DNA from: Escherichia coli | GTDB lineage: Bacteria; Pseudomonadota; Gammaproteobacteria; Enterobacterales; Enterobacteriaceae | Length of the DNA stretch: 64,000 nt | Assembly: GCF_041248615.1 (NCBI RefSeq) | Contig: NZ_CP158425.1 | Reading direction: 5' to 3' (one strand) | Part shown: positions 1 to 14,980 of the stretch, piece by piece | Layout of the letters: each line of letters begins with the position of its first letter | Numbering within the stretch: position 1 is the first letter of the stretch | Notes under the pieces: generated by a model | Told to the model about the DNA's origin: nothing | The model's database searches: none | Seen by the model: the letters and a program-made list of their open reading frames with translations, nothing else | Made by a program: the position numbers and the translations under genes

Positions 1-133
1 GATTGGGTATCGCCGTGCTTCCGATATGTTCAATGGCTACGGCATGAGAACCGAAAAAATGGAGCAATTTTATTTTCTCTTCTTCAAAATTCTTTGTCCA
101 ATCCGGGTTATATTCCATAATTTCAATTTTCAT
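1..133 (-). CDS. GrpB-family protein, N-terminal part only (gene continues beyond window start)
   Basis: Minus-strand ATG at 133-131; translation MKIEIMEYNPDW..FEEEK..IEHIGSTAIP resembles GrpB N-terminus; no ORF-track entry because partial. Confidence 0.4.
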   Translation of the reverse strand, partial: MKIEIMEYNPDWTKNFEEEKIKLLHFFGSHAVAIEHIGSTAIPN

Positions 134-170
134 GATAGTTTCGTCCTTGCCTCAAAAACCATGTTTGGTA

Positions 171-1034
171 TTATACTCCATATCTCTCCGGTGCAGGAAT
201 AGCCTTTTCTGATGCACGGCTAACAGCTTCCCATTCTTCCCAGGTAGCCATCCGTGCTTTTAAGGTATCCATCGCCAAATCGTATACCATGCTGCCAAGG
301 ATAAGCCTCAAAGGCGGATTATTGCTGGCTACTAATTTCATAAGGGCTTCCGCTGCCAAGGAAGGATCACTATCGACCGAATCTTCGGAATACTGTTTCG
401 CCAGCTCATCGCGCAGTGTACCGTATGAATCTAATGGATTGCTGTAACTCATCGAAGTGTATAAATCTGTCCAATATCCTCCTGGTTCCACCATAGTGAG
501 TTTCACTCCGAAATGTTCCGCTTCTTTTGCTAAGGCTTCACTCATTCCTTCCAGCGCAAATTTACTTGCACTGTAAATACCAGACATCGGACCCGAGATA
601 ATAGCGCCAATGCTTGTAATCTGTATGATATGTCCAGAACGCTGCGACCTCAAATAGGGCATCACTGCCTGACAAACCCAAAGAGCTCCAAAAAAGTTTG
701 TGTCCATTAGTTTCCGAGCATCGGATTCGTTTAGTTCTTCAATCATACCCATAGTCATGATACCCGCATTATTAACAACAATATCAAGCCTACCGAAATG
801 TTTAACTGCTGTTTCAACCGTAGAAAAAACAGCCTCCCTATCTGTAACATCGAGGTTTAATGGCAGTAAGCTCTCTTGATATGTTTCTTCTAGCTTCGCC
901 AAATTATCGATAGTCCTTGCAACTGCAACAACTTTATCCCCGGCTTTCAAGGCGGCGCATGTAAAAGCATAGCCAAGCCCCTTGCTTGCTCCGGTAATAA
1001 ACCATACTCTTTTATTTTCGCTATTAGGTATCAT
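171..1034 (-). CDS. short-chain dehydrogenase/reductase (SDR) family oxidoreductase
   Basis: 287 aa ORF with N-terminal TGASKGLG Rossmann motif and YSASK (YxxxK) catalytic motif. Confidence 0.85.
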   Translation of the reverse strand: MIPNSENKRVWFITGASKGLGYAFTCAALKAGDKVVAVARTIDNLAKLEETYQESLLPLNLDVTDREAVFSTVETAVKHFGRLDIVVNNAGIMTMGMIEELNESDARKLMDTNFFGALWVCQAVMPYLRSQRSGHIIQITSIGAIISGPMSGIYSASKFALEGMSEALAKEAEHFGVKLTMVEPGGYWTDLYTSMSYSNPLDSYGTLRDELAKQYSEDSVDSDPSLAAEALMKLVASNNPPLRLILGSMVYDLAMDTLKARMATWEEWEAVSRASEKAIPAPERYGV

Positions 1035-1179
1035 AGATATTCTCCTTTAGGCTATTATAGAAAGATTATTATAAGCGAAATTAATACCGTTAAACGCCAT
1101 GAGCCCGACAATTTTGAGCACTTTGTTTTGTACTCCCAGAAGCTCACCACTACAAATTATCATCAACCCGGTCCTTTTT

Positions 1180-1439
1180 TCAGTCCACTTGCGGTTTCAT
1201 TGTTACTTTGTCATAGCGTCGTGTCAGAATGCGGCAGAGAACAGCGTTTACTATCAACGCAACACCAGACCAGAAAAACCATGTATTAACACCTATAACC
1301 TCAACAACCGGACCTGCAACAAGTAAGCCTATCGGCATAGAAAGAGTCATGGCGGTCATCAAAAGGGAAAACACCTTGCCCATCATTTCAGGGGCAATGC
1401 TTTCTTGAACATAAGCCATAACAGGAACATTCATAAATG
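1180..1439 (-). pseudogene. MFS-type transporter, C-terminal fragment truncated by IS26
   Basis: Hydrophobic C-terminal segment of a transporter-like ORF; reading frame runs into the IS26 terminal repeat at 1440. Confidence 0.5.
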
Positions 1440-2259
1440 GGCACTGTTGCAAAGTTAGCGATGAGGCAGCCTTTTGTCTTATTCAAAGGCCTTACATTTC
1501 AAAAACTCTGCTTACCAGGCGCATTTCGCCCAGGGGATCACCATAATAAAATGCTGAGGCCTGGCCTTTGCGTAGTGCACGCATCACCTCAATACCTTTG
1601 ATGGTGGCGTAAGCCGTCTTCATGGATTTAAATCCCAGCGTGGCGCCGATTATCCGTTTCAGTTTGCCATGATCGCATTCAATCACGTTGTTCCGGTACT
1701 TAATCTGTCGGTGTTCAACGTCAGACGGGCACCGGCCTTCGCGTTTGAGCAGAGCAAGCGCGCGACCATAGGCGGGCGCTTTATCCGTGTTGATGAATCG
1801 CGGGATCTGCCACTTCTTCACGTTGTTGAGGATTTTACCCAGAAACCGGTATGCAGCTTTGCTGTTACGACGGGAGGAGAGATAAAAATCGACAGTGCGG
1901 CCCCGGCTGTCGACGGCCCGGTACAGATACGCCCAGCGGCCATTGACCTTCACGTAGGTTTCATCCATGTGCCACGGGCAAAGATCGGAAGGGTTACGCC
2001 AGTACCAGCGCAGCCGTTTTTCCATTTCAGGCGCATAACGCTGAACCCAGCGGTAAATCGTGGAGTGATCGACATTCACTCCGCGTTCAGCCAGCATCTC
2101 CTGCAGCTCACGGTAACTGATGCCGTATTTGCAGTACCAGCGTACGGCCCACAGAATGATGTCACGCTGAAAATGCCGGCCTTTGAATGGGTTCATGTGC
2201 AGCTCCATCAGCAAAAGGGGATGATAAGTTTATCACCACCGACTATTTGCAACAGTGCC
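1440..2259 (-). mobile_element. IS26 (IS6 family), 820 bp
   Basis: Terminal inverted repeats GGCACTGTTGCAAA at 1440 and complement ending 2259; encloses Tnp26; flanking 8 bp differ (no target-site duplication). Confidence 0.95.
1492..2196 (-). CDS. tnp26: IS26 transposase Tnp26
   Basis: Protein MNPFKGRHFQRDIILWAVRWYCKYGISYRELQEM... matches remembered Tnp26; ORF-track N-terminal extension ignored. Confidence 0.95.
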   Translation of the reverse strand: MNPFKGRHFQRDIILWAVRWYCKYGISYRELQEMLAERGVNVDHSTIYRWVQRYAPEMEKRLRWYWRNPSDLCPWHMDETYVKVNGRWAYLYRAVDSRGRTVDFYLSSRRNSKAAYRFLGKILNNVKKWQIPRFINTDKAPAYGRALALLKREGRCPSDVEHRQIKYRNNVIECDHGKLKRIIGATLGFKSMKTAYATIKGIEVMRALRKGQASAFYYGDPLGEMRLVSRVFEM

Positions 2260-2605
2260 CCTGCGGGTTCTGACTGGAAAGGGCGCTCAGATCGACACCA
2301 CGACTGCGTCCGGTCGCATGGTGTTCGGAATCTTCGCCACCTTGGCCGAGTTCGAGCGGGATCTGATCCGAGAGCGCACCATGGCGGGTCTCGCCTCCGC
2401 GAGAGCGCGCGGTCGCAAGGGCGGACGAAAATTCGCGCTCACCAAAGCTCAGGTGCGTCTCGCGCAAGCCGCCATGGCCCAGCGCGATACTTCAGTTTCC
2501 GATCTCTGCAAGGAACTCGGCATCGAGCGCGTCACTCTCTACCGATATGTCGGTCCCAAAGGCGAGCTCAGAGACCATGGAAAGCATGTTCTCGGACTTA
2601 CGTAG
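2260..2605 (+). pseudogene. tnpR: Tn5393 resolvase tnpR, 3' fragment (5' end removed by IS26)
   Basis: 346 bp identical in translation to the 3' part of the intact tnpR at 11075-11420; begins directly at the IS26 boundary. Confidence 0.9.
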
Positions 2606-2669
2606 TGGACTTGCCTCGGTTTCGTTCCGGTCTTTTTGAGAGCATTATTTGTTATCAAGGAGACCATAT

Positions 2670-2945
2670 ATGTCATTAAAGCATAGTGATGAATTTAAGC
2701 GTGATGCAGTTCGCATAGCACTCACTAGTGGCTTAACACGCCGTCAAGTTGCGTCAGATTTAAGTATTGGGCTTTCCACGCTTGGGAAATGGATCGCATC
2801 AATTTCCGATGAAACTAAAATTCCTACCCAAGACACTGATCTTCTGCGTGAGAATGAACGTTTACGCAAAGAGAACCGTATCCTTCGGGAGGAGAGGGAG
2901 ATATTAAAAAAGGCAGCAATATTTTTCGCAGTACAAAAGCTGTGA
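2670..2945 (+). CDS. IS1133 transposase OrfA (helix-turn-helix)
   Basis: IS3-family OrfA-like protein with leucine-zipper C-terminus; ATG at 2670 preceded by AAGGAG. Confidence 0.8.
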   Translation: MSLKHSDEFKRDAVRIALTSGLTRRQVASDLSIGLSTLGKWIASISDETKIPTQDTDLLRENERLRKENRILREEREILKKAAIFFAVQKL

Positions 2946-3799
2946 GATTTCAGTTTATTACGGATTACCGTGGCTCTCTCTCACGTTCACGCATATGTCG
3001 TTTGATGGGCGTAACAGATCGTGGTTTACGTGCATGGAAACGCCGTCCTCCATCACTGCGCCAGCGTCGTGATCTTATACTTCTAGCGCATATACGTGAG
3101 CAGCATCGGTTGTGTTTGGGGAGCTATGGTAGGCCGCGTATGACAGAAGAGTTGAAAGCGCTGGGCCTGCAGGTTGGGCAGCGTCGGGTTGGACGTTTGA
3201 TGCGCCAGAATAACATTACAGTTGTTCGAACGCGTAAATTCAAACGGACAACGGATAGTCATCATACCTTCAACATTGCACCGAACCTATTAAAACAAGA
3301 CTTTAGCGCAAGCGCACCCAACCAGAAATGGGCAGGCGATATCACTTATGTTTGGACCAGAGAAGGATGGGTCTATCTTGCTGTTATCCTTGACCTGTAT
3401 TCCCGTCGCGTGATTGGCTGGGCAACAGGTGATCGATTAAAGCAGGATCTTGCATTAAGGGCACTGAATATGGCGTTGGCTTTACGCAAACCACCACCGG
3501 GTTGTATTCAACACACAGACCGTGGGAGCCAATATTGCGCTCATGAATATCAAAAGCTACTGCTCAAACATCAATTGCTGCCGTCCATGAGCGGGAAAGG
3601 CAATTGTTTTGATAACTCCGCAGTAGAAAGCTTCTTTAAATCATTAAAGGCTGAGTTGATTTGGCGCAGACACTGGCAAACAAGGCGAGATATTGAGATT
3701 GCAATCTTCGAATATATAAATGGCTTTTATAATCCACGCCGAAGACATTCAACACTCGGCTGGAAATCGCCGGTGGCATTTGAGAAAAAAGCCGCTTAA
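2942..3799 (+). CDS. IS1133 transposase OrfB (integrase core, DDE)
   Basis: 285 aa ORF overlapping OrfA in typical IS3 frameshift arrangement; DITYV...integrase core. Confidence 0.85.
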   Translation: MRFQFITDYRGSLSRSRICRLMGVTDRGLRAWKRRPPSLRQRRDLILLAHIREQHRLCLGSYGRPRMTEELKALGLQVGQRRVGRLMRQNNITVVRTRKFKRTTDSHHTFNIAPNLLKQDFSASAPNQKWAGDITYVWTREGWVYLAVILDLYSRRVIGWATGDRLKQDLALRALNMALALRKPPPGCIQHTDRGSQYCAHEYQKLLLKHQLLPSMSGKGNCFDNSAVESFFKSLKAELIWRRHWQTRRDIEIAIFEYINGFYNPRRRHSTLGWKSPVAFEKKAA

Positions 3800-3905
3800 A
3801 ATGAGAGATAGACCGGAACACAACCGGTGCAAGTCCATAGCAACTCGTTTCTTTTCGCAGGTTGAGCCACCTCCGCGCTTCATCAGAAAACTGAAGGAAC
3901 CTCCA

Positions 3906-4709
3906 TTGAATCGAACTAATATTTTTTTTGGTGAATCGCATTCTGACTGGTTGCCTGTCAGAGGCGGAGAATCTGGTGATTTTGTTTTTCGACGTGGTGA
4001 CGGGCATGCCTTCGCGAAAATCGCACCTGCTTCCCGCCGCGGTGAGCTCGCTGGAGAGCGTGACCGCCTCATTTGGCTCAAAGGTCGAGGTGTGGCTTGC
4101 CCCGAGGTCATCAACTGGCAGGAGGAACAGGAGGGTGCATGCTTGGTGATAACGGCAATTCCGGGAGTACCGGCGGCTGATCTGTCTGGAGCGGATTTGC
4201 TCAAAGCGTGGCCGTCAATGGGGCAGCAACTTGGCGCTGTTCACAGCCTATCGGTTGATCAATGTCCGTTTGAGCGCAGGCTGTCGCGAATGTTCGGACG
4301 CGCCGTTGATGTGGTGTCCCGCAATGCCGTCAATCCCGACTTCTTACCGGACGAGGACAAGAGTACGCCGCAGCTCGATCTTTTGGCTCGTGTCGAACGA
4401 GAGCTACCGGTGCGGCTCGACCAAGAGCGCACCGATATGGTTGTTTGCCATGGTGATCCCTGCATGCCGAACTTCATGGTGGACCCTAAAACTCTTCAAT
4501 GCACGGGTCTGATCGACCTTGGGCGGCTCGGAACAGCAGATCGCTATGCCGATTTGGCACTCATGATTGCTAACGCCGAAGAGAACTGGGCAGCGCCAGA
4601 TGAAGCAGAGCGCGCCTTCGCTGTCCTATTCAATGTATTGGGGATCGAAGCCCCCGACCGCGAACGCCTTGCCTTCTATCTGCGATTGGACCCTCTGACT
4701 TGGGGTTGA
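3906..4709 (+). CDS. strA: aminoglycoside 3''-phosphotransferase APH(3'')-Ib (streptomycin resistance)
   Basis: Protein from NRTNIFFGESHSDWLPVRGG... to ...LRLDPLTWG matches StrA; TTG start at 3906; ORF-track upstream extension not coding. Confidence 0.95.
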   Translation: MNRTNIFFGESHSDWLPVRGGESGDFVFRRGDGHAFAKIAPASRRGELAGERDRLIWLKGRGVACPEVINWQEEQEGACLVITAIPGVPAADLSGADLLKAWPSMGQQLGAVHSLSVDQCPFERRLSRMFGRAVDVVSRNAVNPDFLPDEDKSTPQLDLLARVERELPVRLDQERTDMVVCHGDPCMPNFMVDPKTLQCTGLIDLGRLGTADRYADLALMIANAEENWAAPDEAERAFAVLFNVLGIEAPDRERLAFYLRLDPLTWG

Positions 4710-5545
4710 TGTTCATGCCGCCTGTTTTTCCTGCTCATTGGCACGTTTCGCAACCTGTTCTCATTGCGGACACCTTTTCCAGCCTCGTTTGGAAAGTTTC
4801 ATTGCCAGACGGGACTCCTGCAATCGTCAAGGGATTGAAACCTATAGAAGACATTGCTGATGAACTGCGCGGGGCCGACTATCTGGTATGGCGCAATGGG
4901 AGGGGAGCAGTCCGGTTGCTCGGTCGTGAGAACAATCTGATGTTGCTCGAATATGCCGGGGAGCGAATGCTCTCTCACATCGTTGCCGAGCACGGCGACT
5001 ACCAGGCGACCGAAATTGCAGCGGAACTAATGGCGAAGCTGTATGCCGCATCTGAGGAACCCCTGCCTTCTGCCCTTCTCCCGATCCGGGATCGCTTTGC
5101 AGCTTTGTTTCAGCGGGCGCGCGATGATCAAAACGCAGGTTGTCAAACTGACTACGTCCACGCGGCGATTATAGCCGATCAAATGATGAGCAATGCCTCG
5201 GAACTGCGTGGGCTACATGGCGATCTGCATCATGAAAACATCATGTTCTCCAGTCGCGGCTGGCTGGTGATAGATCCCGTCGGTCTGGTCGGTGAAGTGG
5301 GCTTTGGCGCCGCCAATATGTTCTACGATCCGGCTGACAGAGACGACCTTTGTCTCGATCCTAGACGCATTGCACAGATGGCGGACGCATTCTCTCGTGC
5401 GCTGGACGTCGATCCGCGTCGCCTGCTCGACCAGGCGTACGCTTATGGGTGCCTTTCCGCAGCTTGGAACGCGGATGGAGAAGAGGAGCAACGCGATCTA
5501 GCTATCGCGGCCGCGATCAAGCAGGTGCGACAGACGTCATACTAG
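4709..5545 (+). CDS. strB: aminoglycoside 6-phosphotransferase APH(6)-Id (streptomycin resistance)
   Basis: Protein MFMPPVFPAHWHVSQPVLIADTFSS... matches StrB; start overlaps strA stop (TGATG). Confidence 0.95.
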   Translation: MFMPPVFPAHWHVSQPVLIADTFSSLVWKVSLPDGTPAIVKGLKPIEDIADELRGADYLVWRNGRGAVRLLGRENNLMLLEYAGERMLSHIVAEHGDYQATEIAAELMAKLYAASEEPLPSALLPIRDRFAALFQRARDDQNAGCQTDYVHAAIIADQMMSNASELRGLHGDLHHENIMFSSRGWLVIDPVGLVGEVGFGAANMFYDPADRDDLCLDPRRIAQMADAFSRALDVDPRRLLDQAYAYGCLSAAWNADGEEEQRDLAIAAAIKQVRQTSY

Positions 5546-5570
5546 ATATCAAGCGACTTCTCCTATCCCC

Positions 5571-5651
5571 TGGGAACACATCAATCTTACCGGAGAATAT
5601 CGTTGGCCAAAGCCTTAGCGTAGGATTTCGCCCTCTCCCGCAAACGACCCC
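5571..5651. repeat. Tn5393 81-bp terminal inverted repeat (IRR)
   Basis: Reverse complement aligns with the IRL at 7762-7842 with a few mismatches. Confidence 0.85.
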
Positions 5652-5880
5652 TTTATTGTAGGTGGGCCAGTTGGTGATTTTGAACTTTTGCTTTGCCACG
5701 GAACGGTCTGCGTTGTCGGGAAGATGCGTGATCTGATCCTTCAACTCAGCAAAAGTTCGATTTATTCAACAAATCCACGTTGTGTCTCAAAATCTCTGAT
5801 GTTACATTGCACAAGATAAAAATATATCATCATGAACAATAAAACTGTCTGCTTACATAAACAGTAATACAAGGGGTGTT

Positions 5881-6696
5881 ATGAGCCATATTCAACGGGA
5901 AACGTCTTGCTCGAGGCCGCGATTAAATTCCAACCTGGATGCTGATTTATATGGGTATAAATGGGCTCGCGATAATGTCGGGCAATCAGGTGCGACAATC
6001 TATCGATTGTATGGGAAGCCCGATGCGCCAGAGTTGTTTCTGAAACATGGCAAAGGTAGCGTTGCCAATGATGTTACAGATGAGATGGTCAGACTAAACT
6101 GGCTGACGGCATTTATGCCTCTTCCGACCATCAAGCATTTTATCCGTACTCCTGATGATGCATGGTTACTCACCACTGCGCTCCCCGGGAAAACAGCATT
6201 CCAGGTATTAGAAGAATATCCTGATTCAGGTGAAAATATTGTTGATGCGCTGGCAGCGTTCCTGCGCCGGTTGCATTCGATTCCTGTTAGTAATTGTCCT
6301 TTTAACAGCGATCGCGTATTTCGTCTCGCTCAGGCGCAATCACGAATGAATAACGGTTTGGTTGATGCGAGTGATTTTGATGACGAGCGTAATGGCTGGC
6401 CTGTTGAACAAGTCTGGAAAGAAATGCATAAGCTTTTGCCATTCTCACCGGATTCAGTCGTCACTCATGGTGATTTCTCACTTGATAACCTTATTTTTGA
6501 CGAGGGGAAATTAATAGGTTGTATTGATGTTGGACGAGTCGGAATCGCAGACCGATACCAGGATCTTGCCATCCTATGGAACTGCCTCGGTGAATTTTCT
6601 CCTTCATTACAGAAACGGCTTTTTCAAAAATATGGTATTGATAATCCTGATATGAATAAATTGCAGTTTCATTTGATGCTCGATGAGTTTTTCTGA
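5881..6696 (+). CDS. aph(3')-Ia: aminoglycoside 3'-phosphotransferase APH(3')-Ia (kanamycin/neomycin resistance)
   Basis: Protein MSHIQRETSCSRPRLNSNLDADLYGYKWARDNVGQSGATIYRLYGK...; upstream leader matches Tn903-type aphA1 context. Confidence 0.95.
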   Translation: MSHIQRETSCSRPRLNSNLDADLYGYKWARDNVGQSGATIYRLYGKPDAPELFLKHGKGSVANDVTDEMVRLNWLTAFMPLPTIKHFIRTPDDAWLLTTALPGKTAFQVLEEYPDSGENIVDALAAFLRRLHSIPVSNCPFNSDRVFRLAQAQSRMNNGLVDASDFDDERNGWPVEQVWKEMHKLLPFSPDSVVTHGDFSLDNLIFDEGKLIGCIDVGRVGIADRYQDLAILWNCLGEFSPSLQKRLFQKYGIDNPDMNKLQFHLMLDEFF

Positions 6697-6849
6697 TAGT
6701 TAGTCTTTGTAGAGACACAAACCTGAAATTCCGGACACCGCGCTTCAGGACATCTCCCTGGACGCCGATATCTGGCAGTATCCGGACGGTACTATCGAAC
6801 GCCGGGCCAACGGTACTCCCCTGCCCTTTATGACTGACGACCGGCTATT

Positions 6850-7758
6850 TCACCCACGCACTTCTCCATGAAATTTAGCATCGTCGCGGTTAATGTCGAA
6901 AATTTGCCACCTGACGTGGTTGGCATCGAGGGTGAAAACTGCCGTGGCGAGGGTGTTCTCCTCATCCGGATCGTCGGCAGCCAGCCGGTAAATTGGCAGT
7001 TCTGCGTCATGGGTATCTGAGAGAATGGTTTTTGCCGCCGCGGCGTCAAACGGAGGTTGCGTTTCCCGCCACTGCACGAGGCGTAACTGCCGCGACGCTG
7101 AACTGTCGGTAACGATCTGCTCAACGCCAGCCAGTGCCGCATGCACCAGATGGTTGGCATGCCCGGTTACCGTCGTCAGGGGTAGAACGGAACAGCCTTG
7201 ACCGGTGGCCTCAACGCTGAACAGCCGCGCATCGCCCAGCTGCCCGAGCGTATGGTGAAACGCCCCGGATCGCGGCTGGCCGGTAAGTATAGTGATGGCC
7301 TCGTCGAGGGTGTTCGCATTCAGCGAGGCGCGAGCCAGGATCTGACGCGGTAATCCCTGCGGACGATACACTGCACGGATGTTATTCACCGTGTTAACGA
7401 TACCTTTTTCATTTACCGCAAAGGTGTGGCCGCAAATCGACCCCGGATAGGCAAAACTCGTAAAGCTCAGACCGCGACTCGGAGTAATGGTAGCCAGCAA
7501 GCATTCATCCCGTAACTGAGGAAAACCGTCTTCATTATGCGCGATAATCCGCTCGCCTGCGGCGTTTACCCCGGCCACCGTCGTACAGCCATCCGACGTT
7601 GAGCGCACCAGATCGCCACGGCAGTTCCAGGCAAAGACCTGATCAACAGTGGCCTCCAGTCCCTGCGCCAGCCCCTCCAGCTCCTGCCAGATGTGCGGAT
7701 AATGCCGCTGCACCTCGGCGCGCATTAACCGGGTCTCAGGGGATGCCTGCAGGGTCAT
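6850..7758 (-). CDS. C45-family autoproteolytic acyltransferase/hydrolase-like protein (tentative)
   Basis: About 302 aa; DGCTTV motif resembles the Gly-Cys self-cleavage site of acyl-CoA:6-APA acyltransferase-like enzymes; ends 3 bp before Tn5393 IRL. Confidence 0.5.
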   Translation of the reverse strand: MTLQASPETRLMRAEVQRHYPHIWQELEGLAQGLEATVDQVFAWNCRGDLVRSTSDGCTTVAGVNAAGERIIAHNEDGFPQLRDECLLATITPSRGLSFTSFAYPGSICGHTFAVNEKGIVNTVNNIRAVYRPQGLPRQILARASLNANTLDEAITILTGQPRSGAFHHTLGQLGDARLFSVEATGQGCSVLPLTTVTGHANHLVHAALAGVEQIVTDSSASRQLRLVQWRETQPPFDAAAAKTILSDTHDAELPIYRLAADDPDEENTLATAVFTLDANHVRWQIFDINRDDAKFHGEVRG

Positions 7759-7761
7759 CAC

Positions 7762-7842
7762 GGGGTCGTTTGCGGGAGGGGGCGGAATCCTACGCTAAGG
7801 CTTTGGCCAGCGATATTCTCCGGTGAGATTGATGTGTTCCCA
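7762..7842. repeat. Tn5393 81-bp terminal inverted repeat (IRL)
   Basis: GGGGTCGTTTGCGGGAGGGGGCGGAATCCTACGCTAAGG...; tnpA reading frame terminates inside it. Confidence 0.85.
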
Positions 7843-10680
7843 TCCGAGCGGCGAAACATGGGCCAAGAGATCGGGCGATAGCAGCTTTCCATCGCGTTTC
7901 TGGTTTGCAACGACCTCGCCGAGCTTCATGGTGTTCCAGAAGATGATGATGGCGGCGAGCAGATTCATGCCGGCGATGCGGTAATGCTGGCCTTCGGCGG
8001 AACGGTCGCGGATTTCACCGCGGCGGTGGAAGCTGATTGCCCGCTTCAGCGCATGATGAGCTTCGCCTTTGTTGAGCCCGATCTGGGCACGCCGTTGGAG
8101 TTCGGCATCCAGAATCCAGTCGATCATGAACAGGGTGCGCTCGACGCGACCGACTTCCCGCAGGGCTGTCGCGAGCTCGTTCTGCCGCGGATAGGAGGCG
8201 AGTTTCCGCAGAATCTGGCTTGGCGCGACGGTCCCGGCAGCAATGGTGGCGGCGATGCGCAGGATGTCGGGCCAATTGCGCTCGATCATGGCTTGGTTGA
8301 CCTTTCCGCCGATCAACGCTCGCAGGTGCGCCGGGGCGGCCGACGGATTGAACGCGTAGAGCCGTTTGGATGGCAGGTCGCGGATGCGCGGAGCGAACCG
8401 GTAGCCGAGAATGGCACATGCGGCAAAGACGTGATCGGTGAAGCCGCCCGTGTCGGTGAACTGCTCGCGGATATGGCGTCCAGCATCGTTCATCAGCAGG
8501 CCATCGAGGATGTAAGGCGCTTCGCTTGCCGTTGCAGGAATCACCTGGGTTGCGAACGGCGCATATTGGTCGGAGACGTGGCTATAGGCTTTCAGGCCCG
8601 GGGTATTGCCATATTTCGCGTTGACCAGGTTCATGGCCTCACCTTGCTCTGTAGCGACGAAGAACTGTCCGTCGCTCGAAGCCGACGTGCCCATGCCCCA
8701 GAACCGGGCCATGGGTAACGCTGCCTGTGCCTCGACCACCATGGCCAGCGCCCGGTCATAGGCTTCGCCCTCGACATGCCACCGTCCAATGCGGATCAAT
8801 TCCCAGAAGGTGTGGGTGTTTGTCGCATCCGCCATTTTGCGCAAGCCGAGGTTGATCCCTTCCGCCAAGATAACGTTCATTAGCCCGATCCGGTCAGCGC
8901 AGGGTGCTCCTGTGCGCAGATGGGTGAACGCTTCGGTGAAGCCGGTCGCCGCATCCACCTCCAGCAGGAGATCGGTGATGCGCGTGGGCGGGATCTGCTT
9001 GTAGAGATCGAGCACCAGATCTTCGGCGCCTGTCGGCGCGGCGGCTTCGAGTTTCTCGATATGCAGAACGCCGTTTTCAATCGACCCGCCCGGGATCGTG
9101 CCTGCGCGAGCGGCACGGCCAAGCTCGCGCAACCGCATGTCGAGGCGAGCTTGCCGGTCTGCCAGCCATTCCTCCGGCCGCAATGGCACAGCGAGACGAC
9201 CGCCTTCCGCGATGGATTGTGCCGGAACGAGTGCGTGTTTCAGATCGCCATAGCGCCGGGACCTAGTAAGCCAGACATCTCCGGAGCGGAACGCATCGCG
9301 CAGATGGAACAGCACCGCGATCTCCCATAGGCGAGCGTCGCCAGCCCTCTGGGCCCGAAGGTGGCGATGCCATTTCGAGCTGGGCCGCAAGAAGCTGGTC
9401 ATCGCGGCATCGTTCAAACCGGTACGAAGGGCCGTCACCGCTTCCAGAAGCGGCAGTGCAACGGGCGCAGCTCGCAGATCGAGCAGGCGCAACATGCGTG
9501 GAGCGTATCGGCGGAAGCGGTGATAACCGTCGAGCACATGATTGAGCGGATCGTCGGCCATGGTGGCGGTCAGCCTGGTTGCCATTGCAACAAGGGTTTT
9601 TAAGCCGTCCCACCCTGACCCACTCGCGATGACATCGCCCAGCGGCTGGCCATCATCCTGTGCATCGACCAGGGCGCCCCCGATCTCGGCGAAGGATTTC
9701 AGGGTGTCACGCACCACCCCCGCTTCGTCTGCGACCTTTGCATGGCAAATACGCTCCGAAGCACGGTAGAGACGGCCGACGATCCGGTCGTGGGTTTCGA
9801 CCACTGCGTCGGCCAACATCGCCTGCCATTCCGAGACGCAAACAGCCAAGATCGCAAGCCGCCTGTCCTCCGGGAGATCGCGCATGCCGTCGGCATAATA
9901 CCGTTCACCCTGCCTGCGCAGACGAGTCACCCGATGGGCAGGAACGCCGGCAAGCAGATCCTCGGGGAGATCGATGCGTTGCAGATATTCGAGCCGGTCG
10001 AGCAGCCGGTTGGCCGACGAAGAGTTCGAGCCAGGCTCGAACTGGCGCAGCCACACAAAACGGGTCACCCGATCATCAGCCGTCTCCTCGAGCAATGCCA
10101 GCAACTGTTCTCGGATCGACATAGGCAGCCGACTGGCGATCCTCGTCTCGATGCGTCGCTCGGCATCGACGAGAGCCGCGGCACAAAGCCGCTCGATCGT
10201 GGATGTCGCGGGAAGGACAGTGCGGGTGCGTCGGCACTCGGCTACGAAGCGACGGGCGATATCCTCGTTCGACACCGCCATCTCGGCTTCTCGGAACAAC
10301 CATTCCTTCAGCTCGCTCGCACCACGTCCGGAGAAGGTGCGGAAGCCGTAGAGCCCCCGTAACTCGGCAAGATGCTCGTGCCGTGTTTCCTCGCGGGCAG
10401 CATAGTCTACGAGATCGTCGGCACCCAGGCCAAGCTGCGCTCCGATAAATTCGATGACCTCTGCAGGGATCAGTTCGCCTGGAGCCAGCACCCGGCCGGG
10501 ATAGCGCAGGACACACAATTGCAGGGCGAAGCCGAACCTGTTGTGAGCGCGCCGACGCAGCCTGATATGCCCAAGGTCTTCATCACTCAGCGTATAGTGC
10601 TTGAGCAAATCCGTCTGTGAAGTCGGCAAGCGCAACAGCGCGTCTTTCTGCCGATCGGTTAGAGTGACGCGACGCGGCAT
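7795..10680 (-). CDS. tnpA: Tn3-family transposase TnpA of Tn5393
   Basis: 961 aa ORF typical of Tn3-family transposases; divergent from tnpR. Confidence 0.95.
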   Translation of the reverse strand: MPRRVTLTDRQKDALLRLPTSQTDLLKHYTLSDEDLGHIRLRRRAHNRFGFALQLCVLRYPGRVLAPGELIPAEVIEFIGAQLGLGADDLVDYAAREETRHEHLAELRGLYGFRTFSGRGASELKEWLFREAEMAVSNEDIARRFVAECRRTRTVLPATSTIERLCAAALVDAERRIETRIASRLPMSIREQLLALLEETADDRVTRFVWLRQFEPGSNSSSANRLLDRLEYLQRIDLPEDLLAGVPAHRVTRLRRQGERYYADGMRDLPEDRRLAILAVCVSEWQAMLADAVVETHDRIVGRLYRASERICHAKVADEAGVVRDTLKSFAEIGGALVDAQDDGQPLGDVIASGSGWDGLKTLVAMATRLTATMADDPLNHVLDGYHRFRRYAPRMLRLLDLRAAPVALPLLEAVTALRTGLNDAAMTSFLRPSSKWHRHLRAQRAGDARLWEIAVLFHLRDAFRSGDVWLTRSRRYGDLKHALVPAQSIAEGGRLAVPLRPEEWLADRQARLDMRLRELGRAARAGTIPGGSIENGVLHIEKLEAAAPTGAEDLVLDLYKQIPPTRITDLLLEVDAATGFTEAFTHLRTGAPCADRIGLMNVILAEGINLGLRKMADATNTHTFWELIRIGRWHVEGEAYDRALAMVVEAQAALPMARFWGMGTSASSDGQFFVATEQGEAMNLVNAKYGNTPGLKAYSHVSDQYAPFATQVIPATASEAPYILDGLLMNDAGRHIREQFTDTGGFTDHVFAACAILGYRFAPRIRDLPSKRLYAFNPSAAPAHLRALIGGKVNQAMIERNWPDILRIAATIAAGTVAPSQILRKLASYPRQNELATALREVGRVERTLFMIDWILDAELQRRAQIGLNKGEAHHALKRAISFHRRGEIRDRSAEGQHYRIAGMNLLAAIIIFWNTMKLGEVVANQKRDGKLLSPDLLAHVSPLGWEHINLTGEYRWPKP

Positions 10681-10805
10681 ACATGTTCCTTTTTCAAAAT
10701 CTGATAGCGTTCAAGACGCTTTGTTTATGAAGCTGGTTGAGATACATTTCCAGAGGTCAATGCAATCGTGGCCGAAGCGCCGCCTCAAACCAACGTTTGT
10801 GATAC
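10681..10805. promoter_or_regulatory. res site / divergent tnpA-tnpR promoter region of Tn5393
   Basis: 125-bp intergenic region between divergently transcribed tnpA and tnpR, the usual position of res in Tn3-family elements. Confidence 0.6.
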
Positions 10806-11420
10806 ATGCTGATCGGATATGCCCGCGTCTCCAAAGCCGATGGCTCGCAGTCTCTCGACCTGCAGCACGACGCCTTGCGCGCCGCAGGTGTCGAACGGGA
10901 CAATATCTATGATGATCTTGCTTCCGGCGGTCGTGATGATCGCCCTGGCTTGACTGCCTGCCTCAAGTCATTGCGTGACGGCGATGTGCTGGTGGTCTGG
11001 AAGCTCGATCGCCTCGGACGATCGCTTGCCCATCTGGTCAACACGGTGAAGGAGCTGTCAGACCGCAAGATCGGCCTGCGGGTTCTGACTGGAAAGGGCG
11101 CTCAGATCGACACCACGACTGCGTCCGGTCGCATGGTGTTCGGAATCTTCGCCACCTTGGCCGAGTTCGAGCGGGATCTGATCCGAGAGCGCACCATGGC
11201 GGGTCTCGCCTCCGCGAGAGCGCGCGGTCGCAAGGGCGGACGAAAATTCGCGCTCACCAAAGCTCAGGTGCGTCTCGCGCAAGCCGCCATGGCCCAGCGC
11301 GATACTTCAGTTTCCGATCTCTGCAAGGAACTCGGCATCGAGCGCGTCACTCTCTACCGATATGTCGGTCCCAAAGGCGAGCTCAGAGACCATGGAAAGC
11401 ATGTTCTCGGACTTACGTAG
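10806..11420 (+). CDS. tnpR: Tn5393 resolvase TnpR (serine recombinase)
   Basis: 204 aa; N-terminal MLIGYARVSKADGSQSLDLQ serine-recombinase motif; C-terminal helix-turn-helix. Confidence 0.95.
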   Translation: MLIGYARVSKADGSQSLDLQHDALRAAGVERDNIYDDLASGGRDDRPGLTACLKSLRDGDVLVVWKLDRLGRSLAHLVNTVKELSDRKIGLRVLTGKGAQIDTTTASGRMVFGIFATLAEFERDLIRERTMAGLASARARGRKGGRKFALTKAQVRLAQAAMAQRDTSVSDLCKELGIERVTLYRYVGPKGELRDHGKHVLGLT

Positions 11421-11450
11421 CAACTCGTTTCTTTTCGCAGGTTGAGCCAC

Positions 11451-11871
11451 AGAGGTGGATCAGGAAATTTGAACAACACTTATAAGTGATATTTTGCTCC
11501 CCAAATGATGTTATAAACATCAATATATGGAGTATTTTATGACACGTAGACCAAGAAGAAATCATTCAAATGACTTTAAAGCTAAGGTAGCACTTGCTGC
11601 GATTAAAGCAGAAAAAACACTTGCTGAATTGAGTGCTGAATTTGATGTTCATCAAAACCAAATTATTGACTGGAAAAATCAACTGATTTCAGCTTCCTCG
11701 CAAGCTTTCGATCAATCAAAAGCTCCAACAGAACCACCCATCGATCTAAAAAAACTACATGCAAAAATCGGTGAGCAGGCATTAGAAATTGATTTTTTAG
11801 AAGGTGTGTTGAAGAAACTGGGTCGCTTCAACCACAAAAGTTAATCGATGACTCACTTCAGATTTCAGTAT
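11451..11871 (+). mobile_element. IS3-family element, left end only (AT-rich), truncated
   Basis: Starts AGAGGTGGATCAGG (similar to ends of the IS at 13781-15064); contains OrfA but no OrfB before the IS5-family element. Confidence 0.55.
11539..11844 (+). CDS. IS3-family transposase OrfA
   Basis: MTRRPRRNHSNDFKAKVALAAIKAEKTL... similar to the OrfA at 14669-14980. Confidence 0.7.
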   Translation: MTRRPRRNHSNDFKAKVALAAIKAEKTLAELSAEFDVHQNQIIDWKNQLISASSQAFDQSKAPTEPPIDLKKLHAKIGEQALEIDFLEGVLKKLGRFNHKS

Positions 11872-11938
11872 CTAGGGTCAGGACCCATTGATTTGAACTG
11901 ACGGCTGTGATTCAGATGGGCGTATAGGAGCCCGACTG

Positions 11939-12289
11939 ATGAGTAATTTGTTTTGGCTGACGGACGAGCAAATGGCTCGTCTTCAGCCCTATTTCCCCAA
12001 GAGCCATGGCCGCCAGCGCGTTGATGATCGACGCGTTCTGAGCGGCATCATCTTCGTCAACCGCAACGGGCTGCGTTGGCGTGATGCGCCGAAGGAATAT
12101 GGCCCGGCGAAGACGCTTTATAACCGCTGGAAACGCTGGGGCGACAAGGGCGTATTTATCCAGATGATGGAAGGTCTGGCCGTGCCTGAAGCCGCAGAGC
12201 ACAAGACCATCATGATCGATGCGACCTATCTCAAGGCCCACCGCACGGCTTCCAGCTTGCGGGTAAAAAAGGGGGCGCGGGCCGCCTGA
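11939..12289 (+). CDS. IS5-family transposase, N-terminal ORF
   Basis: 116 aa MSNLFWLTDEQMARLQPYFP... typical IS5/IS427-group OrfA. Confidence 0.75.
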   Translation: MSNLFWLTDEQMARLQPYFPKSHGRQRVDDRRVLSGIIFVNRNGLRWRDAPKEYGPAKTLYNRWKRWGDKGVFIQMMEGLAVPEAAEHKTIMIDATYLKAHRTASSLRVKKGARAA

Positions 12290-12309
12290 TTGGACGCACG
12301 AAAGGCGGC

Positions 12310-12699
12310 ATGAACACCAAGCTTCATGCCGTAACGGATGCGAGTGGTCGCCCGATCAGCTTCTTCATAACGGCAGGCCAGGTCAGCGATTACACCGGTG
12401 CTGCCGCCTTGCTTGATGAACTTCCCAAGGCCAAATGGTTGCTGGCCGACCGTGGCTATGATGCCGACTGGTATCGTGACGCTTTACAGGCGAAGGGGAT
12501 CACTCCCTGCATTCCAGGTCGAAAATCCCGCAAGAAGACCATCAAATACGACAAACGCCGCTACAAACGGCGCAACCGGATCGAGATCATGTTCGGGCGT
12601 CTCAAAGACTGGCGGCGTGTCGCTACGCGTTACGACCGGTGCCCAATGGCCTTTCTCTCCGCCATCGCTCTCGCTGCGACCGTTATCTTCTGGCTATGA
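12310..12699 (+). CDS. IS5-family transposase, C-terminal ORF (DDE)
   Basis: 129 aa, ...LADRGYDADWYRDAL... DDE-domain portion; likely joined to OrfA by frameshifting. Confidence 0.75.
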   Translation: MNTKLHAVTDASGRPISFFITAGQVSDYTGAAALLDELPKAKWLLADRGYDADWYRDALQAKGITPCIPGRKSRKKTIKYDKRRYKRRNRIEIMFGRLKDWRRVATRYDRCPMAFLSAIALAATVIFWL

Positions 12700-12719
12700 G
12701 CAATGAGTCCTGACCCTAG

Positions 12720-13318
12720 CGCATATCAAGCCAGAGGAGCCTGAGGTACTTGGTCTTTTAGCCCTCATGGAACTCCAGTGCTCTCGGCTGCTTGCCCGAC
12801 AAGATCGTCAAGGCTTGCCAGTGCCGCTCGATCGTCAGGATCGTGGCTTGTGGGATCGATTGCTCATACGTCGAGGTCTGGAGATAGTTGAGCGAGCATG
12901 CCGCATGTCGTCTCCCACTGGATGGTATCTTCTGCAAGCGTTGATTTCTGCTTGTCACGCGCGGGCTGCGAGCTTTCGAGACACCAATTGGCGAGAGATA
13001 CTGGCGAGATATGACGCGCTCTTCCTGTTGAGCCCTACATACGTAGTTGCCCTCAATCGAGCAGTCGCTGTGTCGTGGGCCATGAACCCCGCTGCAGGGA
13101 TGGCGGTCCTTAAGGCGATTGAGGACGAGTGGGACGTGGAGACCTACCCGCTTTTTCACGCGACGCGGGCGGATTTCCTTTCGCGTCTTGGTTTCCAAGA
13201 CCAAGCTGCGGCAGCCTATCAGGCTGCGGCCGTACTCAGCACCAACCTACCTCAAAAGTTGTTCTTGGTCACGCGCGCTGAGGAATGCCTGGCAGGGTCT
13301 CGGACAGATGTTGGATAA
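12720..13318 (+). pseudogene. ECF-type RNA polymerase sigma factor, C-terminal domain fragment (GC-rich)
   Basis: YLLQALISACHARAASFRDTNWREI...VVALNRAVAV resembles C-terminal extension of ECF sigma factors; N-terminal sigma regions absent. Confidence 0.45.
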
Positions 13319-13841
13319 CATCAGTCGATTGACGGTGATTGCGCGCACGTGGACGCGCATCATGACAGGTATGACGAGCCTTTGAACGTCCGCTGGCTGT
13401 GCCGGCGCCATCATATCCGGCTGCACTTCTACGGTGAGGACATGTTTCCTATGTGCAGGCCGCATCACGTATGAACGGCGGCTCTCCGGTTATGCCTCAA
13501 CGCCGCTGAAAGCGTCGCGCGGTCAGTCAGCCATGACGATCATACCTTATTCAGATCATGCGATCGGCGCCCTGCCATCAGGAGGATGAAATGCGTAAAG
13601 ATCAGATCCCGGATTTCGTTGATGAGATCTTCGCCACCGGCTGCCCAATCACCGCAGTAGGACAAGATTGCTATGTTTTGCAGAGAGCGATCTGCTGGCA
13701 GAAGACTTCGACCGTGTTGGTGAGGTGGTCGATAAAATCTGCCAGCGATAAGGAAAGCGTGACCATCTGTTGCTGACATCAGAGGTGGCTCGGTTTGTCT
13801 GAACAGTTTTGGGCGTTTTGCTAAGTGGATTTCCGCCTTGA

Positions 13842-14672
13842 TTATGCCGCCACCATCATTGGTGCCAGCGCGTTGAAGTAGGCCTGATCCGGCGTCTGCC
13901 GGTCAAGGGATGAATGTGGACGTCGGCTATTGTAGAAGGCGAGATAGCGGCCGATGCCAGCGCGAGCCTCGGATACGGTCTTGTAGGCGTGGAGATAGAC
14001 CTCTTCGTATTTGATCGACCGCCAGAGCCGCTCGACGAAGACGTTGTCGCGCCACGCGCCCTTGCCATCCATCGAGATGGCGATCTCCGCCTTCTTCAGC
14101 ACGGCTGTGAAGTCGATGGAGGTGAACTGCGAACCCTGATCGGTGTTGAATATTTCAGGCTTTCCATAGCGGGCCAGCGCGTCCTCGACCGCTTCGATGC
14201 AGAAGTCCGCCTCCATCGTGATCGACAGCCGCCAGGACAGAACCCGCCGGCTAAACCAGTCCACGACGGCGCAGAGATAGACGAATCCCCGCGCCATCGG
14301 CACATACGTTATGTCCATTGCCCAGACCTGGTTGGGCCGGGTGACCGCCAGCTTGCGCAGGAGATAAGGATAGATTTTGTGACCTGGCGCTGGTTTGGAG
14401 GTGTTCGGGCGACGGTAGATTGCCTCGATGCCCATCTTCTTCATCAGCGTGGCGACGTGCAACCGCCCGACCTCGGTCCCTTCACCCCTCAAAAGCCCTT
14501 GCAACATCCGACTTCCGGCGAACGGATAGTCGAGGTGCAGTTCGTCGATCCGCCGCATCAGGTCCAGATCGCCGTCGGACACTTGACGTGGAGAATAGTA
14601 GACACTGCCACGGCTGAAGCCGAGAAGCCTGGCCTGACGTGCGACCGACAGTTTGTGTGTTCGGTCGATCAT
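13842..14672 (-). CDS. IS3-family transposase OrfB (integrase core)
   Basis: 276 aa with DITYV...D...E integrase core; overlaps OrfA by 4 nt. Confidence 0.85.
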   Translation of the reverse strand: MIDRTHKLSVARQARLLGFSRGSVYYSPRQVSDGDLDLMRRIDELHLDYPFAGSRMLQGLLRGEGTEVGRLHVATLMKKMGIEAIYRRPNTSKPAPGHKIYPYLLRKLAVTRPNQVWAMDITYVPMARGFVYLCAVVDWFSRRVLSWRLSITMEADFCIEAVEDALARYGKPEIFNTDQGSQFTSIDFTAVLKKAEIAISMDGKGAWRDNVFVERLWRSIKYEEVYLHAYKTVSEARAGIGRYLAFYNSRRPHSSLDRQTPDQAYFNALAPMMVAA

Positions 14673-14980
14673 TTCTTTCCGCCCAGCAATCCCGCTTTGC
14701 CGAGCGCTCCGGCTAAAAAATCATTCTCCAATGTCAGTTCGCCTATTTTGGCGTGCAGCGTTTTGACATCGACGGTTGGACCTGCCGGTTCCGCCTTCGC
14801 TTCATCGCCGAAAACGCCTGTCGCCCCATCAAGGAGCTGGTCTTTCCACTGTTTGATCTGGTTGGCATGCACGTCGAACTGCTGGGACAATTCCACCAGC
14901 GTCTGCTCACCTCGGATCGCGGCGAGCGCCACTTTTGCCTTGAAAGCCGGGCTGTGGTTCCGGCGCGGTCGTCTTGTCAT
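14669..14980 (-). CDS. IS3-family transposase OrfA
   Basis: MTRRPRRNHSPAFKAKVALAAIRGEQTL... Confidence 0.8.
   Translation of the reverse strand: MTRRPRRNHSPAFKAKVALAAIRGEQTLVELSQQFDVHANQIKQWKDQLLDGATGVFGDEAKAEPAGPTVDVKTLHAKIGELTLENDFLAGALGKAGLLGGKK

Follow-up and report, generated by a model that had tools for sequence, protein, structure and literature searches.

Two Tn5393 fragments in p14408_M1

The window, meaning the whole 64-kb stretch of DNA that was analyzed, is from the IncHI2 plasmid p14408_M1 of Escherichia coli NRZ14408 (record LT599829.1). Near its left end lies a block conferring resistance to streptomycin and kanamycin/neomycin, with IS1133 upstream of strAB, that is built on fragments of two Tn5393 copies, here termed copy A and copy B, rather than on one transposon (Table 1). 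The remnant of tnpR in copy A corresponds to positions 3314 to 3659 of Tn5393c; the start of the gene and the res site are absent. It is abutted on the left by IS26, whose two ends carry the 14-bp terminal repeat GGCACTGTTGCAAA and which lacks an 8-bp duplication (flanks TTCATAAATG and CCTGCGGGTT), and on the right by IS1133, which directly follows the tnpR stop codon, with TAG duplicated at 2603-2605 and 3838-3840. This is the IS1133 site of the classical Tn5393 (PMC10333595). The 81-bp IRR of copy A faces the IRL of copy B across 2,110 bp; these terminal inverted repeats match at 77/81 positions and each is identical to its Tn5393c counterpart.

Table 1. Features of the Tn5393-derived region, with positions numbered from the first base of the window
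Feature	Position	Strand	Remarks
IS26	1440..2259	-	820 bp; cuts copy A in tnpR, mef(B) on other side; annotated IS26 transposase
Copy A tnpR 3' 346 bp (nt 270-615 of 615), repeat copy 1	2260..2605	+	Exact match to 11075-11420
IS1133 (IS3 family), 1,232 bp	2606..3837	+	Imperfect terminal inverted repeats; annotated IS1133 family transposase
Copy A right end	3838..5651	+	30 bp common to copy B, strA, strB, IRR; 100% identical to Tn5393c 3657-5470
strA, aph(3'')-Ib	3906-4709	+	AMRFinder 100%; ORF intact
strB, aph(6)-Id	4709-5545	+	AMRFinder 100%; ORF intact
IRR, 81 bp	5571-5651	+	strA-strB adjoins IRR, as in Tn5393
IS903B-type inner 125 bp	5652..5776	-	Matches IS903B positions 1-125 (read from L006); PLSDB IS903B matches cover stretch
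aphA1 / aph(3')-Ia segment	5777..6849	+	Gene 5881-6696, 104 bp upstream, 153 bp downstream; AMRFinder 100%
C45 peptidase gene (acyl-CoA:6-APA acyltransferase-like), 5'-truncated	6850..7761	-	Pfam PF03417, E = 7e-36
Copy B left part	7762..11450	.	IRL to 30 bp beyond tnpR; 100% identical to Tn5393c 1-3689
IRL	7762-7842		Copy B
tnpA	7795-10680	-	961 aa, ORF intact; DDE_Tnp_Tn3 Pfam on identical product
res region, only one in window	10681-10805		Position from gene order only
tnpR, complete	10806-11420		204 aa, ORF intact; resolvase Pfam PF00239, E = 7e-45; repeat copy 2 at 11075-11420
ISAba14-like IS3-family element, left 422 bp	11451..11872	+	Starts 30 bp after tnpR; Tn5393g junction
ISKpn12	~11873-12718		Interrupts ISAba14-like element; ends located

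The 3' end of tnpR is present twice as an exact direct repeat (346/346 bases) that cannot be extended on either side. A further 33 bp, including the TAG duplicated by the IS1133 insertion, recurs at 3838-3870 and 11418-11450, so that 376 bp of Tn5393 sequence is present twice. The repeat is thus the overlap between the surviving parts of copies A and B, and BLAST of the whole 64-kb window against itself identified no second repeat of ≥100 bp.

When positions 7762-11420 were joined virtually to 3841-5651, the resulting 5,470 bp was 100% identical to the intact Tn5393c found in many plasmids, and every Tn5393-derived base of the window is identical to that element. Unlike Tn5393c, the window contains no intact element. 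A single transposed unit would run from IRL to IRR between 5-bp target duplications; here IRR precedes IRL, and the 5 bp adjoining them differ (TTTAT beside IRR and ATCAC beside IRL). An earlier note on this DNA, made from the sequence alone, had described the tnpR repeat, had placed the strA-strB-IRR and IRL-tnpA-res-tnpR ends about 2.1 kb apart and had argued that this order could not result from one simple insertion; all three statements were borne out, and the alignment to Tn5393 reference variants that it proposed gave 100% identity to Tn5393c for both parts. Because there is no IRR beyond the IRL, normal Tn5393 transposition is not open to either part as it now stands.

Comparison with known Tn5393 variants

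Judged by its junctions, copy B is of the Tn5393g type. Tn5393g of pHHV35 (FJ012882; Heuer et al. 2009), which PMC10333595 states was named by Cain and Hall (2011), has the same junction between tnpR plus 30 bp and an ISAba14-like element, and in both sequences ISKpn12 lies within this element and a region with ecf-like, tmrB-like, and aac(3)-IIe genes follows downstream. The window differs from pHHV35 in having ISKpn11 and blaTEM-1 and in the position of ISKpn12, which is ∼260 bp nearer the IS end. The ISAba14-like element of pHHV35 has both ends and a CAC duplication, indicative of a simple insertion; the right end and the CAC were seen only there. Tn5393g of pHHV35 continues to strAB-IRR, whereas no such continuation of copy B past the aac(3)-IIe insert was identified anywhere in the 64-kb window, in which blaTEM-1, IS1, and the IncHI2 backbone lie downstream. 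Two proposals of the earlier note stand in part. An IS3-family end does begin at 11451, as it had noted, but this marks what is a simple insertion in pHHV35 rather than a truncation, strAB-IRR having been lost further downstream. Likewise, the two parts represent different variants with respect to their insertions (IS1133 at the classical site versus the ISAba14-like element of Tn5393g), but not in their shared Tn5393 sequence, which is identical. The tnpR/ISAba14-like junction was also found in many Acinetobacter plasmids.

Tn5393e, as reportedly set out by Cain and Hall in 2011, is a single Tn5393 into which Tn6023 (IS26-aphA1-IS26) has inserted. Like the window, it brings Tn5393 and aphA1 together, but it has one Tn5393 with an internal IS26-bounded insert, whereas in the window aphA1 lies between two copies and outside both. 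Corynebacterium resistens pJA144188 was considered as a candidate double element and rejected, as it carries a single Tn5393 with IS26-aphA1-IS26 inside tnpR, similar to Tn5393e. IncHI2 plasmids with IS903B inside Tn5393 were also set aside as a separate, Tn5393i-like structure.

The spacer between copies A and B

The IS903B-type remnant, the target of copy A, ends exactly at the IRR, with TTTAT as the adjacent 5 bp. At the other side of the spacer, the C45 remnant retains a 302-codon ORF of 340 native codons and meets the IRL at ATCAC. The native C45 gene of Klebsiella michiganensis DSM 25444 starts 114 bp further upstream, and the interruption by the IRL falls at GTGAT. DNA comprising aphA1 and the C45 gene has been traced to K. 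michiganensis (PMC12670165).

The spacer resembles TnaphA1-pIE545 and other aphA1 (pseudo-)compound transposons (PMC12670165, PMC12802963) in having the C45 gene after aphA1 and an IS903-group element upstream. It differs from them in being bounded by two Tn5393 copies and not by IS102, IS903, or IS26, in the distance from the IS end to aphA1 (104 rather than 116 bp), and in the C45 gene being cut by the IRL. A structure of the TnaphA1-pIE545 type was not recovered, as there is one 125-bp IS903B-type end only and both a second IS and glnQ are absent. A Tn5393-bounded form of aphA1 is not listed in PMC12670165 (Moran and Hall 2025) or PMC12802963 (Harmer and Hall 2025), and no description of a compound Tn5393-aphA1-Tn5393 arrangement was found in the openly readable literature.

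One metagenome contig with C45-aphA1 and no Tn5393 genes (L026) was evaluated as a possible native context and rejected, since it retains the last 11 bp of the IRL and is therefore a derivative.

Distribution of related loci

The window-type arrangement occurs in at least five other plasmid records. The same 16 kb is present at 100% identity in MZ419555, MH924589, OR724977, and CP026933.2, and the independent, PacBio-assembled plasmid pMCR_1139_D1 (MT929287) is 100% identical over positions 1-14302 of the window. The same core was found in the IncF plasmid pSH163_120 and the IncHI2 plasmid pSE08-00436-1. More broadly, ≥80% of window positions 5560-7860 is present in 139 PLSDB records, and 112/5,426 complete E. 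coli genomes carry the C45 segment. All related loci share the 2,110-bp spacer at 100% identity, and the inner junctions, IRR/TTTAT-IS903B and C45-ATCAC/IRL, are the same in every relative examined, recurring in >100 plasmids. No record reveals the site at which the double element arose: the reciprocal junctions that two simple insertions should have left (IS903B outer part-TTTAT-IRL and IRR-ATCAC-C45 5' end) are absent from PLSDB, and a search for the C45-IRL junction in one genome per species gave no match. Ranking PLSDB records with an 8,980-bp query representing a hypothetical double element was uninformative, as a single subject region was credited to both copies and the window itself scored 100%.

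The point to which copy A is cut back varies by plasmid. In the window it is set by IS26 at nucleotide 270 of tnpR, and elsewhere by IS10, IS1, a different IS26 cut, or an RSF1010-type sul2-strA junction. Copy B ends at the ISAba14-like insertion in the window and is complete in two other genomes; in locus L024 it is complete including IS1133, and L021 retains its IRR end. The chromosome of Pseudomonas sp. GXZC (CP114115.1) contains a near-complete double element with a 5-bp duplication, AATTA, on both outer sides, the one complete double element identified in which a target duplication could be assessed (n = 1); in the window, both outer ends have been lost. Copy A of the GXZC element has a 1,302-bp IS in place of Tn5393c positions 1870-2969 (the 5' part of tnpA and the tnpA-proximal 50 bp of res), its two copies are 12 substitutions and 1 indel apart, and both tnpA genes are defective.

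Predicted deletion between the tnpR repeats

The earlier note had predicted that recombination between the repeats would remove strAB, aph(3')-Ia, and tnpA as one segment, and the expected product was found in two sister IncHI2 plasmids, pMCR_170_D1 and pMUB-MIN9-1. Both keep the window flanks, with collinearity of 2,605 bp to the left of the missing segment and 7,388 bp to its right (99.96 to 100% identity), but lack exactly 8,815 bp, corresponding to one Tn5393::IS1133 plus the spacer (6,705 + 2,110 bp). Homologous recombination between the two 346-bp repeats (376 bp with the 30 bp beyond IS1133) would release an 8,815-bp circle carrying IS1133, strAB, aphA1, the C45 remnant, tnpA, res, and the 5' part of tnpR. 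One recombination step can thus remove streptomycin and kanamycin resistance along with the sole functional tnpA, res, and tnpR, which accounts for differences among otherwise near-identical plasmids of one meat survey.

As the deleted and inserted sequences are identical, the direction of the event cannot be read from them. The deleted form may have come first, an IS26-truncated Tn5393g (IS26/346-bp stub/ISAba14-like element) having gained the circle by homologous recombination in tnpR. A single crossover is possible both ways, both forms occur in sister plasmids, and the exact one-unit difference between them fits this direction also. It nevertheless appears improbable. In six complete E. 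coli records the IS26/346-bp stub runs straight into IS1133-strAB, and one of these shares the sul3/mef(B) left context without the ISAba14-like junction, whereas the stub is joined straight to the ISAba14-like element in two records only. The shorter path begins with a single IS26 cut in a copy bearing IS1133 and ends with deletion.

Origin of the arrangement

Taken together, these data favor, at a probability of about 0.8, a real mosaic left from two directly oriented Tn5393 copies that flanked a 2,110-bp passenger of K. michiganensis origin. The inner junctions would have been made by two separate transposition events, with IS903B and the C45 gene as the respective targets, and the resulting unit may then have moved, or recombined, as a block. 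In the Tn3 family, a double element with two res sites is subject to collapse by the TnpR resolvase. A double Tn5393 would be expected to collapse in this way, and loss of one res would spare the structure. Consistent with this, wherever a copy A was seen beside the spacer, its res was missing either entirely or at the crossover end. As only one res is left in the window, the present structure should be safe from resolvase and open to homologous recombination.

The geometry of copy, spacer, and copy in direct orientation would also match an unresolved cointegrate, with a single Tn5393 having duplicated itself in one replicative transposition so that direct copies bracket a small donor. This is very improbable, as it requires the same 5 bp at both donor ends, whereas TTTAT lies in IS903B and ATCAC in the C45 gene; the spacer also has no replicon, and the copies in Pseudomonas sp. 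GXZC differ at 13 positions. An assembly artefact, in which a collapsed or chimeric join at the repeated tnpR, IS26, or IS1133 gave a false order, was considered because 346-bp repeats and several IS copies are usual trouble spots for short reads and LT599829.1 is flagged as linear; the 100% matches in four further records and in the PacBio-assembled pMCR_1139_D1, together with inner junctions repeated in >100 plasmids, reduce it to a negligible prospect and answer the earlier note's concern over assembly error. Hardly any credence attaches to a single Tn5393 split and rearranged by inversion or circular permutation, never with a second copy, since, even with the two parts summing to exactly one Tn5393c, 376 bp is present twice in the window and relatives have strAB, tnpR, IRL, and IRR in duplicate, so that L019 (the GXZC element), L021, and L024 already refute it.

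One point against the reading of a mosaic left in place from two flanking copies is that the IS26/tnpR stub-IS1133-strAB module was also found without aphA1 or copy B, and hence the left part of the window may have been joined by recombination in strAB rather than by IS26 cutting in place.

All parts of the region are already known elements, and no new kind of element or mechanism is revealed. Tentatively, the ∼13-kb Tn5393-(IS903B remnant-aphA1-truncated C45)-Tn5393 structure could be an uncatalogued compound transposon for aphA1 bounded by two whole Tn3-family transposons, which possibly formed once, moved as a unit via its outer IRL and IRR as in Pseudomonas sp. GXZC, and seeded the aphA1-strAB blocks that have decayed in >100 IncHI2, IncF, and other plasmids. 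Because the GXZC copies differ and each has a defective tnpA, we can only infer that the unit moved as a whole. The finding adds a possible Tn3-family-bounded way out of K. michiganensis to the recently published aphA1 routes and provides a concrete history for a resistance block common in IncHI2 (often with mcr-1) and IncF plasmids of food animals and people. We also considered whether TnpA might act "inside-out" on the IRR and IRL that face one another and so mobilize the remainder of the plasmid; this is formally possible and found no support.

Composite transposons bounded by Tn3-family elements exist, such as the IS1071-bounded catabolic transposons. These likewise have two direct Tn3-family copies around a passenger, and the Pseudomonas double element shares with them a 5-bp outer duplication; in the double Tn5393, however, each bounding element is a full resistance transposon that has a res and a tnpR of its own. 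The invariant IRR-TTTAT-IS903B and C45-ATCAC-IRL junctions can be used as markers of a single origin.

Structure and authenticity of the Tn5393 region

Two parts of Tn5393 bound a 2,110-bp spacer that carries aphA1; copy A, on the left, retains a tnpR stub, IS1133, strAB, and IRR, and copy B, on the right, retains IRL, tnpA, res, and tnpR. Joining positions 7762-11420 to 3841-5651 gave 5,470 bp with 100% identity to intact Tn5393c copies on plasmids from Klebsiella, Pseudomonas, Phaeobacter, Paracoccus, Aeromonas, and others. Insertions aside, no sequence differences were found between copy A, copy B, and the reference. The proposal that the two parts derive from different Tn5393 variants thus holds for their insertions (IS1133 versus an ISAba14-like element) and fails for the Tn5393 sequence itself, which is identical.

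Features of the Tn5393-bounded region in the window
Feature	Position	Strand
IS26	1440-2259	
Copy A stub, tnpR nt 270-615	2260-2605	
IS1133	2606-3837	
strA	3906-4709	
strB	4709-5545	
IRR	5571-5651	
IS903B-type element, inner 125 bp	5652-5776	
aphA1	5881-6696	
C45 peptidase ORF, 302 codons	6850-7758	minus
IRL	7762-7842	
tnpA, 961 aa	7795-10680	minus
res region	10681-10805	
tnpR, 204 aa	10806-11420	
Tn5393, 30 bp past tnpR	11421-11450	
ISAba14-like IS3-family element, split by ISKpn12	11451 onward	

Sequence comparison bore out the 346-bp tnpR direct repeat of the earlier note: 2260-2605 and 11075-11420 are equal at all bases and cannot be extended on either side. The first repeat copy is limited by the end of IS26 on the left and by the 1,232-bp IS1133 on the right, which is inserted immediately after the tnpR stop codon with TAG duplicated. 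Past IS1133, 3838-3870 equals 11418-11450, so that the Tn5393 sequence present twice totals 376 bp. Self-comparison of the 64-kb window identified no other repeats of at least 100 bp, and no Tn5393 sequence lay elsewhere within it. Upstream, the end of a sul3-associated integron region occupies positions 1-1439. It includes a minus-strand gene for an SDR oxidoreductase (171-1034) and what is left of mef(B) (∼1180-1434), which IS26 cuts; no 8-bp target duplication was found at that IS26.

E. coli NRZ14408 carries the IncHI2 plasmid p14408_M1 (NZ_LT599829.1), of which the window covers positions 128001-192000. The first 16,000 bp of the window share 100% identity with four other plasmid records (MZ419555, MH924589, OR724977, and CP026933.2), and MT929287 matches 1-14302 at 100%. 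The latter record is that of pMCR_1139_D1, which came from turkey meat, belongs to IncHI2/ST4, and has a PacBio assembly (PMC7843963). Because identical records include one assembled from PacBio data, the arrangement is not an assembly artifact.

IRR lies upstream of IRL with the outer ends 2,110 bp apart, and the adjoining 5 bp are TTTAT at IRR and ATCAC at IRL. Neither a single insertion nor circular permutation of one Tn5393 copy explains the 376 bp present twice, and a simple cointegrate would need equal 5-bp sequences at both inner junctions. The order therefore cannot come from one simple insertion, in agreement with the earlier note.

The right-hand part and Tn5393g

The junction in which the tnpR stop codon and 30 bp are followed by AGAGGTGGATCAGG is identical in the window and pHHV35, and Acinetobacter plasmids commonly carry the same tnpR/ISAba14-like junction. 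The pHHV35-type element with this junction is Tn5393g (PMC10333595). In pHHV35, both ends of the IS3-family element are present along with a CAC duplication, and the transposon runs on to strAB-IRR; the element is therefore an insertion rather than the truncating event. Copy B does meet an IS3-like element at this junction, as described earlier; the loss of its distal strAB-IRR part instead took place past the aac(3)-IIe region, and the window then continues with blaTEM-1, IS1, and the IncHI2 backbone. Within window 11873-18500, ISKpn12 lies ∼260 bp nearer the end of the ISAba14-like element than in pHHV35, and is followed by a truncated DUF6596/ECF-associated gene, ISKpn11, a tmrB-like AAA ATPase gene, and aac(3)-IIe. 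IS1 ends the resistance region, with backbone from ∼19.2 kb.

Origin of the spacer

The 125 bp adjoining IRR match IS903B positions 1-125, and thus one Tn5393 inserted into an IS903B-type element. At the other end, the plasmid C45 gene leaves the native sequence exactly at IRL (GTGAT), having lost the first 38 of the 340 codons present in Klebsiella michiganensis DSM 25444; the C45 gene was therefore the target of a second Tn5393 insertion. The annotated "C45 family peptidase" of these plasmids is a truncated remnant. Moran and Hall assigned both aphA1 and its neighbor C45 a chromosomal origin in K. michiganensis and described an IS102-bounded transposon with aphA1, C45, and glnQ (PMC12670165).

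Several contexts of these genes differ. In the type strain DSM 25444 (5334-7700 of the compared region), C45 is present with no aphA1 at that position; homology to the window begins 13 bp past the aphA1 stop codon, and an unlike 273-codon ORF follows. Acinetobacter idrijaensis MII (JQCU01000494.1, ∼1400-9300) carries an IS26-bounded segment with glnH, glnP, glnQ, the full 340-codon C45, and aphA1, which resembles a long pseudo-compound transposon with aphA1 in this Acinetobacter; it has three differences from DSM 25444 over 270 bp aligned around the C45 start. ENA contig ERZ27273322 has C45-aphA1 without Tn5393 genes, and because the last 11 bp of IRL (CAAACGACCCC, 9990-10000) remain beside C45, this context likewise descends from the Tn5393 junction.

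At window 5758-5880, aphA1 is preceded by the IS903B-type end at a distance of 104 bp. This is the spacing of Tn903 (V00359) and differs from that of IS102 in pIE545, reported as 116 bp. Despite this, the DNA downstream of aphA1 is of the pIE545/C45 type, a combination that suggests recombination within aphA1 or separate capture. The aphA1 stop codon, TGA in the window, is the exact point at which Tn4352/Tn903-type aphA1 contexts cease to match. The stretch from aphA1 to the C45 ORF (6697-6849) is 153 bp long, and ∼80 bp of it (6767-6846) are 78 to 84% identical to the 3′ ends of ISNCY-family transposase genes.

Complete and decayed forms

At least 80% of window 5560-7860 was present in 139 PLSDB records, and the C45 segment in 112 of 5,426 complete E. 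coli genomes. In every fetched locus with the full spacer, the spacer was 100% identical and bordered by Tn5393c position 5470 at one end and by position 1 at the opposite end; relatives varied in how much of each Tn5393 copy remained. Copy A ends at IS26 at Tn5393c position 3314 in the window, at the RSF1010-type sul2-strA junction (position 3693) in pSE08-00436-1, and in other plasmids at IS1 cutting IS1133 or IS26 at position 5131. In IncF plasmid pSH163_120 the boundary is IS10, interrupting an IS1133 seated 25 bp inside tnpR. This IS1133 remnant (4001-4120, IncF Salmonella lineage) lies upstream of strA and not at the tnpR stop codon, and its interruption by IS10 (ISVsa5) is as in Tn5393h/i-type variants. 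Copy B ends at IS26 (374, 1249, 1535, or 3153) or an ISAba14-like element (3689), and is complete in two cases. The pSE08-like plasmid JARBTG020000002.1 (12108-19525) holds two inverted strAB sets, sul2-strAB-IRR and IS26-IS1133 remnant-strAB; should these recombine, the segment could be inverted and the sequence upstream of strA swapped.

The Pseudomonas sp. GXZC chromosome (CP114115.1; PMC10848231) carries a full Tn5393c as copy B and a copy A that keeps both ends, with a 1,302-bp IS in place of positions 1870-2969 (the 5′ part of tnpA and 50 bp of neighboring res sequence). AATTA adjoins both the outer IRL and outer IRR (chance of a 5-bp match, ∼1/1,024), and thus the whole ∼13.25-kb unit occupies one Tn3-family target site. 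The two copies are 12 substitutions and one indel apart and are therefore not a fresh duplicate. Copy B of JAPGJR010000001.1 is a complete 6,705-bp Tn5393 with IS1133, and its copy A begins at the sul2-strA junction; the IRR of this copy B (3293-3373) matches the IRL sequence at 80 of 81 positions, the usual match being 77/81. CP130675.1 retains the copy B IRR, though an IS26-bounded aac(3)-IV/hph insert splits that copy.

Two transposition events would be required, with IS903B and C45 as the respective targets and the same orientation in both. Either two Tn5393 insertions may have entered one aphA1 transposon, or one insertion may have been followed by an intramolecular event releasing a Tn5393-plus-spacer circle that later recombined into another Tn5393. 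The reciprocal junctions expected from either route were absent from PLSDB. During Tn3-family resolution, TnpR would recombine two direct res sites, deleting the DNA between them. Copy A lacks the tnpA-proximal (crossover) end of res, or all of res, in the window, in CP114115.1, and in every relative mapped, a loss that would fit selection for stable forms.

Deletion between the tnpR repeats

The earlier note predicted that recombination between the repeats would excise strAB, aph(3′)-Ia, and tnpA together. A 646-bp query joining window 2160-2605 to 11421-11620 was searched in PLSDB, and this product was found uninterrupted at 100% identity in two sister IncHI2 plasmids, pMCR_170_D1 (MT929288, PacBio) and pMUB-MIN9-1 (CP069683). 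Their surroundings agree with those of the window: the sul3 integron, SDR gene, and truncated mef(B) precede the join, and ISKpn12, ISKpn11, aac(3)-IIe, and blaTEM-1 follow it. Collinearity with the window extends over 2,605 bp to the left and 7,388 bp to the right (99.96 to 100% identity; 346 bp common to both arms), and each plasmid corresponds to the window lacking exactly 8,815 bp (6,705 + 2,110). A third sister plasmid, pMCR_1085_C1, has another, IS26-made deletion that removed copy A, aphA1, and most of C45.

Because a single crossover is reversible and the sequences are identical, the direction of the 8,815-bp change cannot be proven. Six complete E. coli records, including CP015833.1 (left context as in the window, intI1 after strB) and CP122649.1 (msr(E)-mph(E) context), have the IS26/346-bp stub adjoining IS1133-strAB; in only two records does it adjoin the ISAba14-like element directly. 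The simplest reading is a single cut by IS26 in an IS1133-bearing copy, with the short form being a deletion. The stub-IS1133-strAB records also show that the left module is exchangeable by recombination within strAB, and the left part of the window may therefore have been attached in this way.

Novelty and present function

All components are already known, and the sequence is present in several public records. The Tn5393-bounded form is missing from both 2025 inventories of aphA1 transposons, and no description was found in the openly readable literature; it is a compound structure bounded by Tn3-family elements. The block confers streptomycin resistance via strAB and kanamycin and neomycin resistance via aphA1. 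IS1133 lies upstream of strAB in the window, and resistance is raised by the inserted IS, according to a review (PMC10333595). Each of tnpA, tnpR, res, IRL, and IRR is intact, but their order does not make up a normal transposon; the block is best regarded as unable to move by itself and open to removal in one homologous recombination event.
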